A DNA stretch of 45,442 nt, from positions 1 through 45,442 of the IMG/VR virus record IMGVR_UViG_2534681703_000014. The stretch is one strand, 5' to 3'. A program made the translations under genes and the position numbers. Of the stretch, positions 223 to 17,076 are shown one piece after another; the first letter of the stretch is position 1, and every line of letters begins with the position of its first letter. Under the pieces are notes generated by a model. That model was not told the DNA's origin and did not search any database. It worked only from the letters and a program-made list of their open reading frames with translations. The stretch comes from a virus. Its lineage: Duplodnaviria; Heunggongvirae; Uroviricota; Caudoviricetes.

Positions 223-285
223 TAGGCCACGCATTTTACAACACTTTTTTCCTGAGATGGTGACGGATATTCCATATGGTGTTTG

Positions 286-1404
286 TCAAATAACCAACTT
301 AACCCATTCCTGACCTCGAGTATCGTTATAGCGATCGGTGGTTGCCTGGACTTTATGCCCTAGTAATGTTTTTGTATCGATACCCTGTGCACGGTACAGC
401 CGTTCTGATAGAGAGCGTTGTTCATGAAATGTTGGCGGAGTTTTTCCTGCTGGTGGAATTATCCCAGCCAGATCCCGTGCTTTGGCAAAGTAGTCGCTCA
501 GGTTGTCTTTACTCATCGGCTTCGGTTGTTTCTGGTGCCGACTATGGATTAGATATGGACTTAATATTCTGTCTCGGCACCCATCAATAACTTCTTTTAA
601 CGTTATCCCAATGGCATCACAGCGTAGTGTAAGCGGTAACGCCAGACGCATTCCGGTTTTTCCCTGGGTGATATGCAAGTGTTCGTTCCACACATCTGAA
701 AAACGCATGTGGCAAATGTCATCACGGCGCTGACCAGTAACAATCGCAAGAAGCATTGCGTTACGGATAAAGTGTTTTTCAGGCGTTGCATTGTAAATTT
801 TTTGCCAGTCTTCCATGGTGAGCCTGGCTCTGGTTACTTTAGGGATCGGTTTACGGGTAGCCTCCGGAGGATTCCATCCAGGAGGAACTTCCCCTGCATG
901 CTGTGCTTCTTTATAAATATCAACCCATAATCCACGATTTACTCTCGCTGTGCTGACCATGTCTTTATCCAGCCACTCATCCAGTATTAATGCAAAGTCT
1001 CTTACTTCCAGTTCTTTCAATGGGTGGTTTCCCAGACGGGAAACCAGGTATGCAGCCATTCGAGTTTTTTCTTTGTGAGTTGTAGCTGCAATATCTCCAT
1101 TTTTCAGTCGCGCGTCCTGTATTTTCAGATATCGATCAACCCATGCCTTTAATCTGATGCCCCGACGTTTTGTTGCTGACGGACTTTCATCAATTTTGCG
1201 CATGAAATATTCAGCTTCTGCTGCAGCTATTCGCTGATTGGCTGTGGAAGCGATTTTTTCTGCTTTGCCTTTGTCTGTTCCGAGACCGTGAAATTTTCCA
1301 GTCACAGGGTTTTTATACTGGTAGTAAACCCTGCCAGTTCTGCGATCAAACTTTTCGTAAAGACCGGTTACGTCAGTGCTGTTTTTTCGTGGCCTCGGTG
1401 ACAT
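286..1404 (-). CDS. int: Tyrosine-type site-specific integrase (lambda Int family)
   Basis: 372-aa ORF at prophage end, beside the repeat; C-terminal region with R...HxxR...Y-type catalytic layout typical of phage integrases; AAGGAG SD 10 nt upstream of ATG. Confidence 0.9.
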   Translation of the reverse strand: MSPRPRKNSTDVTGLYEKFDRRTGRVYYQYKNPVTGKFHGLGTDKGKAEKIASTANQRIAAAEAEYFMRKIDESPSATKRRGIRLKAWVDRYLKIQDARLKNGDIAATTHKEKTRMAAYLVSRLGNHPLKELEVRDFALILDEWLDKDMVSTARVNRGLWVDIYKEAQHAGEVPPGWNPPEATRKPIPKVTRARLTMEDWQKIYNATPEKHFIRNAMLLAIVTGQRRDDICHMRFSDVWNEHLHITQGKTGMRLALPLTLRCDAIGITLKEVIDGCRDRILSPYLIHSRHQKQPKPMSKDNLSDYFAKARDLAGIIPPAGKTPPTFHEQRSLSERLYRAQGIDTKTLLGHKVQATTDRYNDTRGQEWVKLVI

Positions 1405-4175: not shown

Positions 4176-4254
4176 TTTGTTTTACCTCATTACAGATTTA
4201 AGGGTGAACAAATCCCTGCCATTGCTGGCATATAAAAATGAAACTGGATATTAA

Positions 4255-4458
4255 TTACGGCGCTGTTTTTAATCCTGCCGGGATTTCGTTATTATCCATG
4301 CGAATAACTTTCTCGACCAGATAACAGTTACCAGGAATTTTCTGTTCTGCTGCGGCAGCCATACATTCTTTCATTGAACCATATATACCAGTAACCACAT
4401 CAACAGGTTCGCCAGTATTAAGAAAAACAGTCAGAGTGAGGGCAACAGCAGTCTTCAT
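4255..4458 (-). CDS. Hypothetical small early protein (67 aa)
   Basis: ORF in the early-left operon; ATGA start/stop overlap with upstream ORF suggests translational coupling; no recognised domain. Confidence 0.4.
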   Translation of the reverse strand: MKTAVALTLTVFLNTGEPVDVVTGIYGSMKECMAAAAEQKIPGNCYLVEKVIRMDNNEIPAGLKTAP

Positions 4459-4748
4459 TGCCAGCGTCCTTTTTGCATCAGGCGTAAACGGGCCAGCATT
4501 GAAACAATGCATATTTTATTTAATAACTCCCGTTCGTGTTTTCTCTTGTTAATGGCATCTTCAGTAAATACAGGGTTACTGATAGTGACACCAATTTCAA
4601 AACAACCTTCAGACGTATTAACGTTTGGTAATAACGTTTCCATTATCGCGTCCTCAACAATGAATTTTGTGATGCGGTGCCTGGTGCCTCCAGGTGACGT
4701 TAACCAGTTAACAATTAACGCCGGATACAGAGAATCCACCCATAACAC
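4455..4748 (-). CDS. Hypothetical early protein
   Basis: ORF co-oriented with the early-left operon; start codon uncertain. Confidence 0.4.
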   Translation of the reverse strand: MLWVDSLYPALIVNWLTSPGGTRHRITKFIVEDAIMETLLPNVNTSEGCFEIGVTISNPVFTEDAINKRKHERELLNKICIVSMLARLRLMQKGRWQ

Positions 4749-5204
4749 TGTTTTTGGTTTTAACTGTTCCGCGTGCGCTTAGCCGCATTCACCGCATCAC
4801 AAAATTCACTTTAAAAAGGGCGGCAGAGCAGTCACGGAGTAAAACTGATACCGCTAAACGCCACCAGAAAATTGATAACAGAGGGCGTTGCAGCGGGGTT
4901 GTCACTTAAGCGTATGGTCAACCTGACAACCCGGTGTCCTCAACGGGGAAGGAATAACCCCGCCATACTTACCGCCGCGCCATTTCGCGGATTGCCACAA
5001 CCGGAAGCGCACGGTCGACGAAAATTTAACGACAGGCTATCTATGAACCAGCAACCTCGCCGTGCGCTTTCGCGTTATGCTCTGACTTTTCAGAGAAATA
5101 TCCTTTCAGTAAACTGTCAGTACCGGATGCTCACCCGTGTCCGGCGCACGCACTCCACCTCACCCGTGGAGAACTCCTTAAGTACCAACCCTCAGGATGG
5201 TGAA

Positions 5205-5426
5205 ATGACTAGTAAAAATGTAAATATCCAGTTTAACCACGATGTTTCTCCTGCCGGACTTGCGGATGAACTCACTGCTATAAAAACAGCAATTATGCTA
5301 CTTGTTGCTAAGTTGCCAGCAGCATCACAACCATCAGATATTTGTGACTCATTACGTAAGATGAATTCAACAAAATGCAACGAGATGGCATCACTTATTG
5401 AAATAGCTATTGATTTTAATGATTAA
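5205..5426 (+). CDS. Hypothetical small protein (73 aa) encoded opposite to the early-left operon
   Basis: ATG at 5205 with upstream GGATGGTGA; 3' end overlaps by 11 nt the convergent minus-strand gene; the upstream part of the listed 184-aa ORF looks non-coding. Confidence 0.3.
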   Translation: MTSKNVNIQFNHDVSPAGLADELTAIKTAIMLLVAKLPAASQPSDICDSLRKMNSTKCNEMASLIEIAIDFND

Positions 5427-5790
5427 TCGAAATCTCATGGCTAACTGTAACACTCCCGTCTGTGGCGGGATGCTTTAAATCACAGGAGTTAACGCTTTTT
5501 GTTGCAAAGTAATTTTCAAGGGGGTCTATTCGAATCCCTTTCTTTTTCATTAACAAGCCAAACCCCTTATCAATGATGTCCATTAGATCCAGGAAGTATT
5601 TTTTATGTAAATCCTGGTTATCAGAGAGCTGCTTCTCTTCGTACAGACCGATAAAGGCACGACGCACGTTACCGGATATAGTATAGATGGTTTCTTTTTC
5701 TACGGTACTCAGGTCAAGAGTCGCCAGTTGGGAACGAACTATATTCGCTGCCATTTCCTGGAATTGCATTGGTAAATCTTTAAATTCCAT
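5416..5790 (-). CDS. Hypothetical early protein (124 aa)
   Basis: ORF in the early-left operon; no recognised motif. Confidence 0.5.
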   Translation of the reverse strand: MEFKDLPMQFQEMAANIVRSQLATLDLSTVEKETIYTISGNVRRAFIGLYEEKQLSDNQDLHKKYFLDLMDIIDKGFGLLMKKKGIRIDPLENYFATKSVNSCDLKHPATDGSVTVSHEISINH

Positions 5791-5812
5791 TATTAGCCTC
5801 GTTGGTTAGCTA

Positions 5813-6031
5813 TTAACGTGGGTATGTAATCATTCTGGCAATGCTTAATGCCGCTGCTTTTTCCAGCCTGGTGATATCCTGCTCCAGAGCGGACAGATTT
5901 TCAGCCTGCTTAGCCCTGGCTTCATTGGCCCATTTCAGATCCTGCGCTGCATTAATTTTCTGGCGCATCCACTCATAAAGTTCATCATCGGTATAGTCTT
6001 GTGCGATGATGACGGGTTCTCGTTTCTGCAT
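5813..6031 (-). CDS. Hypothetical early protein (72 aa), coiled-coil-like
   Basis: ORF in the early-left operon. Confidence 0.45.
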   Translation of the reverse strand: MQKREPVIIAQDYTDDELYEWMRQKINAAQDLKWANEARAKQAENLSALEQDITRLEKAAALSIARMITYPR

Positions 6032-6060
6032 ACTGATTCCTCGCGGTGCTGTTTCGCTTA

Positions 6061-6189
6061 TCAGCCGTTAGATTTTGCGGAACTGGAAAGCGCCTGTTTA
6101 AATTCGTTGAAGCTGAGAGCTTCTTCGCCTTCGGCAAGACCTTCGAAGTATTCTTCGTAAGCCTTTTCCATGATTGTGTCGAAATCCAT
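6061..6189 (-). CDS. Hypothetical small acidic protein (42 aa)
   Basis: Not in the ORF track (under 60 aa); ATG at 6189 lies 1 nt from the stop of the upstream gene (TGAGTGATATGG), suggesting coupling; translation MDFDTIMEKAYEEYFEGLAEGEEALSFNEFKQALSSSAKSNG. Confidence 0.3.
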   Translation of the reverse strand: MDFDTIMEKAYEEYFEGLAEGEEALSFNEFKQALSSSAKSNG

Positions 6190-6190
6190 A

Positions 6191-6427
6191 TCACTCACCT
6201 GAGTTTCTTTCCAGCCAGCGACGGGCACCATTTTCGGTTTTAAACGTTTTGCTTTTGGTATACGTCATCGCGGTGAACGTACCGTCCTGGTTGGGGAACA
6301 CGCCACATACCAGAGATTCGCTGTTGCCAAGATCGATAGTATCCATGCTGACCTCATTTCCCCTTAACGCCGGGGTAGCGGAACAAAAACCTGCTGCATA
6401 GTTATTAAAGTTGAACCCTGCCGTCAT
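6191..6427 (-). CDS. Hypothetical early protein (78 aa)
   Basis: First ORF downstream of the putative pL region at 6428-6637. Confidence 0.45.
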   Translation of the reverse strand: MTAGFNFNNYAAGFCSATPALRGNEVSMDTIDLGNSESLVCGVFPNQDGTFTAMTYTKSKTFKTENGARRWLERNSGE

Positions 6428-6637: not shown

Positions 6638-6916
6638 TTAGGGAAACTGGCGTCTTGCGTGGATCACGTTTACTACTTCAACGCTTGATGTTGTTACGCG
6701 GTATAGAATTATATAGTTAGGGTGGGCTACAATCTCACGCAAGCCAGGTACTCTGTCGCTTGGTGGGTATAAATACGGATGTTCGGATAACGGCAGCACA
6801 CAACCCCTTAATCGCTGCCATAAGCGTTCAGCCGCATCTATGTCGAAACGAGCAATATAACTAGTTATATCATCTAGGTCGGTATCTGCGCTTTCAAGCC
6901 ATAACACGGGTAACAT
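6638..6916 (-). CDS. Type II toxin, RelE/ParE superfamily (92 aa from internal ATG)
   Basis: Size, basic C-terminus (...NVIHARRQFP) and pairing with an upstream small RHH-like antitoxin ORF whose stop is 1 nt from this start; family call from remembered ParE-like sequences. Confidence 0.65.
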   Translation of the reverse strand: MLPVLWLESADTDLDDITSYIARFDIDAAERLWQRLRGCVLPLSEHPYLYPPSDRVPGLREIVAHPNYIILYRVTTSSVEVVNVIHARRQFP

Positions 6917-6917
6917 T

Positions 6918-7109
6918 TTACTGCTTGCTCCGTTCCTTGCGCATTTTAGCAAAGCGTTCTGCCATTCTGCGCTCAACTTCGTCATGGGGAATTGCTGGGC
7001 GTGGATCTGCAAGGCTCGTTGCTACTTTTGCACGCAGCCATTCGTTGTAACTGTTTTCTTGTTCAATGGTTTCAAATTCAGAAACCATTGGTGAAAGGGC
7101 TCTATTCAT
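6918..7109 (-). CDS. Type II antitoxin, ParD-like (63 aa)
   Basis: Small ORF MNRALSPMVSEFETIEQENSYNEWLRAKVATSLADPRPAIPHDEVERRMAERFAKMRKERSKQ with strong GGAGG SD; immediately precedes the ParE-like ORF. Confidence 0.6.
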   Translation of the reverse strand: MNRALSPMVSEFETIEQENSYNEWLRAKVATSLADPRPAIPHDEVERRMAERFAKMRKERSKQ

Positions 7110-7129
7110 GTTTCCTCCGGTTTTATAAC

Positions 7130-7501
7130 TCAGGCGCGGCGGCATTTTTGCGCCGCAATCCATCTCGCTATGAGATCTTCCATTGATTCTTTTTTCTGCT
7201 TTAACTCGCTGATTATCTGGCGTTGCTCATCCTCAGGGAAGGCTGAAAAAATCTGCAATAATTCCAGTTGATTAGACGTTAACCCTGCATGTGGTGGAGA
7301 AACCTCCGGTTGTTCTGCGTATTCCGCATCCAGATACCCTTCCGGCATCCCGTATGTTTGCTCTATTCTTCTGGCAGCCTTTTCTCCAAACGAGGCTCTC
7401 CCACTCATTAGTTGAGATAGGTAGCTCTTCTCTTTGGGTGGCAGAGTTTTATCTTTAAACCACTCCTTGAGACGTAAACGGCGAATTTCTTTTTTTTGCA
7501 T
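7130..7501 (-). CDS. Prophage repressor, short HTH (XRE-like) protein without a peptidase domain (123 aa)
   Basis: HTH-like segment SYLSQLMSGRASFGEKAARRIEQTYG; divergent from a Cro-like gene across a 98-bp operator region. Confidence 0.65.
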   Translation of the reverse strand: MQKKEIRRLRLKEWFKDKTLPPKEKSYLSQLMSGRASFGEKAARRIEQTYGMPEGYLDAEYAEQPEVSPPHAGLTSNQLELLQIFSAFPEDEQRQIISELKQKKESMEDLIARWIAAQKCRRA

Positions 7502-12366: not shown

Positions 12367-12602
12367 TTTTATGGATCACCTTTCTGATTGATTTCATATT
12401 GGCGAGGTAGCAGGAGTTAAGTAGAATTGCTGCGGGTGCTTGAGGCTATCTGTCTCAGGCATGAACACCAAAAGGCAGATAGAGAAAAGCCCCAGTTAAC
12501 ATTACGCGTCCTGCAAGACGCTTAACATTAATCTGAGGCCATATCTATGCGACACATAGAGATTAGCCTCTTACGGACCGAAAGGTCAAGGAGAAGCAGG
12601 CT

Positions 12603-12758
12603 ATGAAGCAGCGAAAGGCGATGTTAATCGCCCTGATCGTCATCTGTTTAACCGTCATAGTGACGGCACTGGTAACGAGGAAAGACCTCTGCGAGGTACG
12701 AATCCGAACCGGCCAGACGGAGGTCGCTGTCTTCACAGCTTACGAACCTGAGGAGTAA
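12603..12758 (+). CDS. hok: Hok/Gef-family type I toxin (51 aa)
   Basis: Translation MKQRKAMLIALIVICLTVIVTALVTRKDLCEVRIRTGQTEVAVFTAYEPEE aligns by eye with Hok ([52 protein letters not shown]); not in the ORF track (under 60 aa). Confidence 0.7.
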   Translation: MKQRKAMLIALIVICLTVIVTALVTRKDLCEVRIRTGQTEVAVFTAYEPEE

Positions 12759-16766: not shown

Positions 16767-16842
16767 GGCCCTTTAGCTCAGTGGTGAGAGCGAGCGACTC
16801 ATAATCGCCAGGTCGCTGGTTCAAATCCAGCAAGGGCCACCA
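16767..16842 (+). tRNA. tRNA with CAU anticodon, resembling E. coli tRNA-Ile2 (ileX-like); Met cannot be excluded
   Basis: Manual cloverleaf: acceptor GGCCCTT/AAGGGCC, D-arm GCTC..GAGC, anticodon loop CTCATAA, T-arm GCTGG-TTCAAAT-CCAGC, 3' ACCA. Confidence 0.85.
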
Positions 16843-16843
16843 A

Positions 16844-16920
16844 CCGCCACTAGCTCATCAGGAAAGAGCGTCAACCCTTTAAGTTGAGTGTGCGAGGTTC
16901 GAGTCCCCGGTGGCGGTCCA
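16844..16920 (+). tRNA. Atypical tRNA-like gene, apparent anticodon UUU (Lys) with C33 and U73
   Basis: Acceptor CCGCCAC/GTGGCGG, D-arm GCTC..GAGC, anticodon stem TCAAC/GTTGA with loop CCTTTAA, T-loop TTCGAGT with one stem mismatch, 3' TCCA. Confidence 0.5.
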
Positions 16921-16922
16921 GT

Positions 16923-16998
<76 letters not shown>

Positions 16999-17001
16999 TA
17001 T

Positions 17002-17076
<75 letters not shown>

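Follow-up and report, generated by a model that had tools for sequence, protein, structure and literature searches.

A reverse-oriented small gene with a predicted translation-gating leader beside DicF in a Qin-type prophage operon

Why would part of an early phage operon carry no gene on its own strand, and what is a small open reading frame (ORF) doing there on the other? The question arises at positions 4790-5426 of the caudovirus record IMGVR_UViG_2534681703_000014 (IMG/VR), which we analyzed at its full length of 45,442 nucleotides (nt), hereafter the window. The original prediction, drawn by a model from the letters and ORFs alone, described a GC-rich, ORF-free segment (4790-5204) inside the leftward early operon, followed by a plus-strand ORF of 73 amino acids (aa), and guessed at a sieB-like exclusion gene, a small RNA (sRNA) or an antisense regulatory element. 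The explanation that we prefer, at a probability of about 0.7, is that the window is a Qin-type lambdoid prophage with its early-left (dicBF) operon on the minus strand, and that the locus combines the known DicF region with a real gene on the opposite strand, which occupies a variable accessory slot and carries a translation-gating leader. By homology, the ORF-free stretch is the long untranslated part of a dicBF operon of the Qin type, which is already known biology. Its last ~90 nt, however, are most likely a conserved, structured leader of the plus-strand gene, a point that the original prediction missed. Coordinates are collected in Table 1.

The coding layout was as described. No minus-strand ORF of at least 40 aa lies within 4790-5204, the only ones there being of 38 aa (4789-4905) and 36 aa (4902-5012), both GTG-started. 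The plus-strand ORF starts with ATG, is present in both the sequence and the ORF list, and overlaps the minus-strand 124-aa gene by 11 nt at the 3' ends. The segment is GC-rich relative to its immediate flanks only and not relative to the window (52.5% versus 51.0% GC); the true outlier is the neighboring block 5191-5792, at 39% GC.

A leader of ~90 nt is common to all of the small-ORF loci, and it is also found in a Salmonella locus (L005) and in an unrelated contig (L007), both of which lack DicF. A covariance model built from 25 distinct copies gave one match per locus in 97 of 99 sources, which include prophages with C4/isrK modules and without DicF. In one prophage of the C4/isrK type the small ORF again runs opposite to its neighbors and overlaps them at the 3' end. 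Scanning viral contigs for the core C-Y-GTGTCCGGCGCAC returned 120 stretches, ~90 of them true copies, and at least 14 unrelated ORFs (57-101 aa) stand behind the leader in these contigs, with start codons 6-9 nt past GGAGG. Those cargo ORFs that have a PHROG match all belong to families of unknown function. One cargo of 94 aa (MAKFTVRIELRD..., L087, ~262-546, minus strand) has a borderline match to the Pfam GhoS endoribonuclease antitoxin (21.2 bits, cutoff 21) and shares phrog_8894 with the 100-aa cargo type. A scan of genome contigs with GTGTCCGGCGCAC-N(25-55)-GGAGG returned almost only chance matches in high-GC genomes and was discarded.

The leader family is apparently undescribed. A permissive Rfam scan of 4400-5900 gave DicF and a sub-threshold STnc100 only, with nothing at 5115-5204, and a text search of the literature with the core sequence found no relevant context. 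A put-type antiterminator as in HK022 was considered and rejected: HK022 is not among the matches of the element in a distant blastn of the phage collection, and none of these matches lies at an annotated feature.

The pairings within the leader point to sequestration of the ribosome-binding site. Hairpin A has the stem CCGGA/UCCGG, which U.G and G.U pairs can lengthen on the plus strand. Hairpin B is represented by at least six unrelated stem sequences at one place, all of which fold. An anti-Shine-Dalgarno segment (anti-SD), CUCCU or CUCCAU, pairs with AGGAG or AUGGAG of the Shine-Dalgarno (SD) region, and the six nt just after the SD core find their complement in the loop of hairpin A, in three covarying classes (UCACCC/GGGUGA, UUAUCC/GGAUAA and UUACCC/GGGUAA). 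Because a single-register covariance-model alignment mis-registers the two hairpin B stem types, folding per type and counting of common pairs were used instead. Pairs were counted on a MAFFT alignment, with 500 shuffles and slid pairings as controls. In the leader 97.3% of cells are paired, versus 90.9 +/- 0.8% in the shuffles, and the covariation score is 0.214 versus 0.096 (0/500 shuffles in both cases); the slid controls are far lower, with at most 56.5% paired and a covariation of at most 0.122. RNAfold keeps hairpins A and B in nearly all of the 25 distinct leaders (mean z-score -2.5) and pairs at least three of the five SD nucleotides in 24 of the 25. The G.U wobbles favor the plus strand. 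We read the leader, at somewhat better than even odds, as a plus-strand element that sequesters the ribosome-binding site.

Several observations weigh against that reading. In a single-register alignment the signal of hairpin B is weaker, a slide of +3 scoring 0.091 versus 0.092. The covarying classes may stand for only two or three independent events, and they are partly linked haplotypes. The SD of the window is degraded, GGAUGG versus GGAGG in most other copies, and the predicted plus-strand promoter is weak (8/12), being missed by the built-in scan at 9/12. A survey of small RNAs in K-12 (PMC3175480) has no candidate at the K-12 relic of the leader. Two variants of hairpin A form A.C on the plus strand and G.U on the minus strand, and loci without the ORF (K-12, Tritos, L039) keep hairpins A and B without the SD.

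Since the hairpins are kept in these ORF-less copies, the element may have an additional or alternative role in the operon RNA or at the DNA level. Possible roles are a signal for processing, stability or read-through before the DicF terminator, or a recombination hotspot; in either case its place at the start of an ORF would be secondary. Its persistence with both hairpins intact in K-12 Qin and Tritos would fit such a role, as would the two hairpin-A variants that pair on the minus strand only and the location of the leader, in every context examined, inside an operon of opposite direction; Watson-Crick covariation cannot tell the strands apart. However, loop A covaries with a hexamer that lies between the SD and the plus-strand AUG and is missing in the ORF-less copies. 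The anti-SD/SD helix makes sense on the plus strand only, and the G.U wobbles in the hairpin A extension, in hairpin B and at pair 25-95 become A.C on the minus strand. The minus strand also has no U-run after the hairpins, and the element shows no similarity to phage HK022 and no Rfam family. We find action in the operon RNA or as DNA unlikely.

Candidate transcription signals accompany the leader. In the dicF context, CCGGA is preceded at ~6-7 nt by a -10-like hexamer, as it is in several contexts whose upstream sequence is unrelated; the clearest promoter, found by scan, is TTGAGA-17-GATAAT (10/12), and TAAAAT and TAAAGT were recognized by eye. At the other end, the terminator-like hairpin lies 92 nt past the stop codon of the 73-aa ORF, within the antisense of the 124-aa gene. 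The same hairpin recurs after the 73-aa and 91-aa ORF types in other loci, and similar terminator signals follow about half of the other ORF types. The relic in K-12 Qin (L004, NC_000913.3, 2046-2138, minus strand) keeps the candidate promoter and hairpins A and B and has lost the SD and the ORF. Its predicted start is near genome position 1,649,130, and any transcript from it would run antisense into ydfC.

Is the 73-aa ORF itself a gene? The homology search proposed with the original prediction placed its product in phrog_7249 and found homologues at 90, 73 (Salmonella) and 64% identity. In comparison with the two most distant copies, third codon positions hold 33/54 and 35/64 of the substitutions, and synonymous and non-synonymous codon changes stand at 26:18 against the Salmonella copy and at 20:24 against the other. 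Of the five other frames, four have at most five synonymous changes; the exception, with 18 and 19, is the antisense frame whose third positions coincide. The gene is present in 88 of 5,426 complete E. coli genomes, in all of which PGAP calls it as a "hypothetical protein". Salmonella phage 118970_sal3 encodes a domain of 36% identity that is likewise reverse-oriented and 3'-overlapping.

The frame could nevertheless be open by chance, leaving DicF-related RNA as the only content of the segment. The product has no known domain and the family is small: a protein search gave 7 matches among 5.8 billion proteins, and a profile made from the 73-aa alignment gave only ~10 small-protein clusters among 1.8 billion representatives, its large matches being low-complexity noise. 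Against chance stand a frame that stays open at 64-90% identity with substitutions mostly at the third codon position, the full-length match to a PHROG family, a conserved SD 6-9 nt before the ATG in all cassette types (AGGAUGG in the window) and the PGAP calls in 88/88 genomes. An accidental frame is scarcely credible and largely refuted; the ORF is very probably coding, a real gene in a separate unit on the opposite strand. A longer, TTG-started ORF of 184 aa (4872-5426) in frame with it was rejected as an artefact because the stretch that it crosses exists in K-12 without an ORF behind it and relatives have 2-nt and 4-nt indels there. In L016 (3299-3736) and L017 (3299-3943) gene callers lengthened the 91-aa small ORF by reading on through the non-coding dicF leader, giving 145 and 214 aa; an annotation artefact is the probable explanation.

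Both the 73-aa and the 124-aa gene lie in a 602-bp block that is missing, as a clean indel, from K-12 Qin and phage Tritos (blastn against NC_000913.3 and OV696610.1). As expected of a moron, the block is an insertion relative to close relatives and deviates in GC content (39% versus 51% for the window). Proteins of the 124-aa family share a conserved N-terminal ~55 aa (MEFKDLP...GLYEEK) and have several unrelated C-termini; the AlphaFold model of the window's member is helical, with a mean predicted local distance difference test score (pLDDT) of 63.5. Behind each variant examined comes a small ORF that converges on it and overlaps its 3' end; these ORFs differ. At dicF loci the ORF behind the flank has 73 aa in this window, 77 aa in PPompW, 92 aa in L011, 100 aa in L014 and 91 aa in L015, and the conserved flank stops exactly at the ATG of the small ORF in all types.

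This arrangement raises the possibility that the 73-aa and 124-aa proteins are a cognate toxin-antitoxin or toxin-immunity pair, in which the reverse gene, made in the lysogen, would neutralize its operon partner. The two genes converge and overlap at their 3' ends, both lie within one low-GC insertion, and 124-aa variants with different C-termini each stand beside a different small ORF. However, the partners do not stay together. L015 has the window-type C-terminal domain up to about residue 100 and yet an unrelated 91-aa ORF. The Salmonella homologue of the 73-aa protein (L005) is found in a Cox-type element without a clear 124-aa homologue, its neighbor of 129 aa showing only 37% identity in a poor alignment. 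The small ORF of L059 is likewise without the 124-aa family, and leader-ORF units occur in prophages that lack this family entirely. Neither protein matches a PADLOC or toxin-antitoxin family model. The partner swap in L015 and the context of L005 therefore disfavor a cognate toxin-antidote pair, which we judge decidedly unlikely.

The function of the small protein is where our reading has least to draw on: Pfam, NCBIfam and PADLOC, searched at E values up to 1, gave no family for either inserted protein, and Foldseek with the AlphaFold models of both found nothing below E = 1 in the PDB, small helical bundles being uninformative. The 73-aa model (pLDDT 69, modest confidence) consists of three amphipathic helices, and the product has no hydrophobic run of membrane-span length and looks soluble. 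Its role is most likely a prophage-state accessory (moron-type) function aimed at the host or at other phages, a suggestion that we make with low confidence.

The original prediction had likened the gene to sieB, and in position the likeness holds. Like the reverse morons of lambdoid early-left operons (sieB of lambda and Rac), it is a small gene set against the operon, of lower GC content than its surroundings, missing from close relatives and equipped with a predicted promoter and terminator of its own. The kilR-sieB arrangement of Rac and lambda is mirrored by a small gene near a cell-division inhibitor gene, dicB here and kilR in L008-L010. SieB, however, is a membrane protein of roughly 190 aa, whereas the 73-aa product is much shorter and not membrane-like, has no relation to SieB in sequence or fold, and matches nothing in Pfam or PADLOC. 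The slot is occupied by many unrelated small proteins, and a promoter-leader module common to many unrelated small ORFs has not been described for sieB. The product thus lacks similarity to SieB, a family assignment and a predicted membrane span; the term "SieB-like" can describe its position only, and we find a superinfection-exclusion gene of the SieB type very unlikely.

A further comparison is with type I toxin mRNAs that have fold-back leaders (hok/sok, tisB, zorO). In these too an upstream leader sequesters the ribosome-binding site by long-range pairing, as computed here from the covarying anti-SD/SD and loop-A/post-SD pairings, and a fully complementary RNA comes from the other strand. 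The proteins differ. The 73-aa product, with its amphipathic helices, is not a short hydrophobic membrane toxin, and the cargo of the leader at large (57-101 aa) is mostly hydrophilic and mutually unrelated. A gene for a dedicated small antisense RNA was not found, and there is no Rfam match. A genuine sok match does occur elsewhere in the window, at 12434-12605 on the plus strand (full-length Rfam sok antitoxin, 106.7 bits), and ends at an ATG that is presumably the mok/hok start.

The remainder of the ORF-free segment is explained by DicF. An Rfam scan of the gap, also proposed with the original prediction, found full-length DicF on the minus strand (RF00039, 4818-4869, 68.6 bits against a gathering score of 48, E 4e-13, model positions 1-52 of 52). 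The guess of a small RNA was thus right as to its presence, but this is a long-known trans-acting sRNA, encoded on the minus strand and co-directional with the operon. A new antisense regulatory element was not what we found; DicF is instead processed from the early-left (dicBF) operon transcript. Its 3' stem-loop, also seen in the minimum free energy (MFE) fold, is followed by a U-run (UUUUU, 4813-4817) as in an intrinsic terminator, and it lies between ydfC and dicB, all three on the minus strand. Two substitutions only, A10G and G16A (window 4861 and 4855), separate it from K-12 DicF, which scores 76.7 bits. Through G16A, which is seen in no other of 12 aligned loci, the base of the terminator stem acquires an A.C mismatch, and A10G lies in the 5' region, which in K-12 DicF serves for xylR and pykA. 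The 3' part, to which pairing with the ftsZ ribosome-binding site is assigned (PMC5069750), is identical to K-12. The identification as DicF is practically certain.

In K-12, RNase III and RNase E cut the dicBp transcript into a 190-nt species and the 53-nt DicF, respectively (PMC10448788). K-12 DicF binds Hfq and represses ftsZ (PMC10448788, PMC5069750), and a search for an internal sense promoter in the operon came up empty (PMC10448788). The window has a long hairpin in the DicF precursor, built on the inverted repeat 5002-5014/5060-5072, whose stem base is invariant and whose apex is variable across the 12 loci. Counting 190 nt back from the 3' end of DicF leads to ~5007, in the 3' arm of this hairpin, and the sequence in Fig. 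S1 of PMC10448788 begins within it. By its predicted fold the hairpin is a probable RNase III substrate giving the 190-nt species, which fits the published site.

Table 1. Positions of the features discussed, in window coordinates
Feature	Position	Strand	Basis or remark
Conserved leader of the small ORF, 90 nt	5115-5204	+	covariance-model match 5115-5207, 87.2 bits
Hairpin A, loop UCACCC at 5131-5136	5123-5144	+	part of the leader
Invariant core GUGUCCGGCGCAC	5137-5149	+	single occurrence in the window
Hairpin B	5153-5171	+	part of the leader
Anti-SD CUCCU	5174-5178	+	part of the leader
SD AGGAUGG	5194-5200	+	part of the leader
Loop-A partner UGGUGA	5198-5203	+	part of the leader
Candidate sigma-70 promoter	5087-5115	+	-35 TTTTCA 5087-5092, 17-nt spacer, -10 TAAACT 5110-5115; 8/12; prediction only
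Terminator-like hairpin and T-run	5518-5551	+	consensus scan; prediction only
73-aa protein gene, predicted helical	5205-5426	+	phrog_7249, E 5e-46, full length
124-aa operon gene	5416-5790	-	phrog_6937
602-bp block, 39% GC, with the 73-aa and 124-aa genes	5191-5792		blastn indel
DicF sRNA, 53 nt, with terminator hairpin	4818-4870	-	Rfam RF00039; positions match K-12 dicF b1574 and Tritos DicF misc_RNA
Long hairpin in the DicF precursor	4997-5079	-	MFE and centroid folds both
Untranslated DicF precursor region	4871-5190	-	homologous to the K-12 ydfC-dicF gap
dicF-dicB spacer / dicB 5' untranslated region	4644-4817	-	conserved in all aligned dicF loci
dicB, 62-aa cell-division inhibitor, next gene after DicF	4455-4643	-	Pfam DicB PF05358, E 4.4e-39, full length
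ydfC, operon gene upstream of the inserted block	5813-6031	-	annotation of RefSeq relatives; K-12 region 96% identity

The surrounding operon is of the Qin type. It reads ydfA-like, ydfB-like, ydfC, the 124-aa gene, the untranslated stretch, DicF, dicB, ydfD and an exonuclease. K-12 Qin (NC_000913.3) has ydfC, a long untranslated region, dicF, dicB and ydfD in the same order and on the same strand, at ~92-97% nucleotide identity, with a full-length DicF, its terminator hairpin and a precursor hairpin that fits RNase III. K-12 differs in the two DicF positions given above and in lacking the two-gene insertion, which in the window separates ydfC from the untranslated region. The ydfC-dicF gap of K-12 is the same one, of 340 nt; window positions 4200-5190 align with K-12 at 91.6% and 5793-6300 at 96.3% identity. 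The precursor region is ~92-97% identical to both K-12 Qin and phage Tritos, and in Tritos DicF is annotated as a misc_RNA at the equivalent place. By megablast the locus matched 4,756 of 5,426 complete E. coli genomes, and the best matches carry RefSeq annotations of ydfB, ydfC, two hypothetical proteins, dicB and ydfD. DicB is read from an internal ATG at 4643, where RefSeq relatives carry the dicB annotation, and further downstream come a DUF1482/YdfD protein and a 3'-5' exonuclease of 823 aa. Positions 4790-4817, with which the reported segment begins on the left, belong to the dicF-dicB spacer. STnc100 (RF02076) matched there at 4611-4820 on the minus strand with 39.1 bits, under its gathering score of 47; this Salmonella sRNA family may correspond to the dicB 5' untranslated region.

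Other features of the locus and the window were seen in passing. L008-L010 and L015-L016 have the same ydfC, cassette and DicF region, but KilR (PF27398) replaces DicB downstream of DicF. In several genomes of the enterotoxigenic E. coli type (H2-H6 and H14-H17; for example NZ_CP022912.1, 2844428-2847660) the locus is broken by one or more IS1B-like IS1 insertion elements, which leaves the match in two or three parts. A PaaA2-type antitoxin (PF21217, E 2e-19) and a ParE toxin (PF05016, E 5e-16) head the early-left operon at 6638-7163 on the minus strand, with the immunity region on one side and the ydfA-like gene on the other. Four tRNA genes (Met-CAT, Lys-TTT, Thr-TGT and Gly-TCC) lie inside the prophage at 16767-17076 on the plus strand.

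Taken together, these results suggest how the two strands may be expressed. The operon transcript would be cut by RNase III in the precursor hairpin and by RNase E at the 5' end of DicF, releasing the 53-nt sRNA, whose hairpin would double as an intrinsic terminator; DicF would then act in trans, for example on ftsZ. These steps were shown in K-12 and are carried over here because of the ~92-97% identity. On the other strand, the predicted weak promoter would start an mRNA near 5122. Its leader of ~83 nt would fold into the two hairpins, and the loop of the first hairpin and the anti-SD segment would both pair with the ribosome-binding region, so that translation should be gated by default. 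The transcript would likely end at the terminator-like hairpin past the ORF.

One leader stands before many unrelated small ORFs in various prophages, and this argues for a shared expression module serving a variable accessory-gene slot. It is possible, and we put it forward only tentatively, that leader and promoter form an undescribed, widespread RNA module of enterobacterial temperate phages that gates a hypervariable small-protein slot (57-101 aa, at least 14 families), and that the K-12 untranslated region holds a decayed copy. As the slot is always antisense within an early operon, its products would then be made only in a particular state, be it lysogeny or a specific trigger, and an RNA antisense to ydfC may still arise from the decayed copy upstream of K-12 dicF. 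What we find on DicF is not new, yet it settles the gap as a known sRNA locus. With a hairpin and an SD behind it, the invariant GUGUCCGGCGCAC offers a sequence handle for finding uncharacterized small prophage proteins, which the leader fold predicts to be held translationally off. If confirmed, the leader would be a regulatory RNA family missing from Rfam, and part of the K-12 dicF precursor region would be the relic of an opposite-strand gene unit, which bears on dicBF processing and on antisense effects in this operon.

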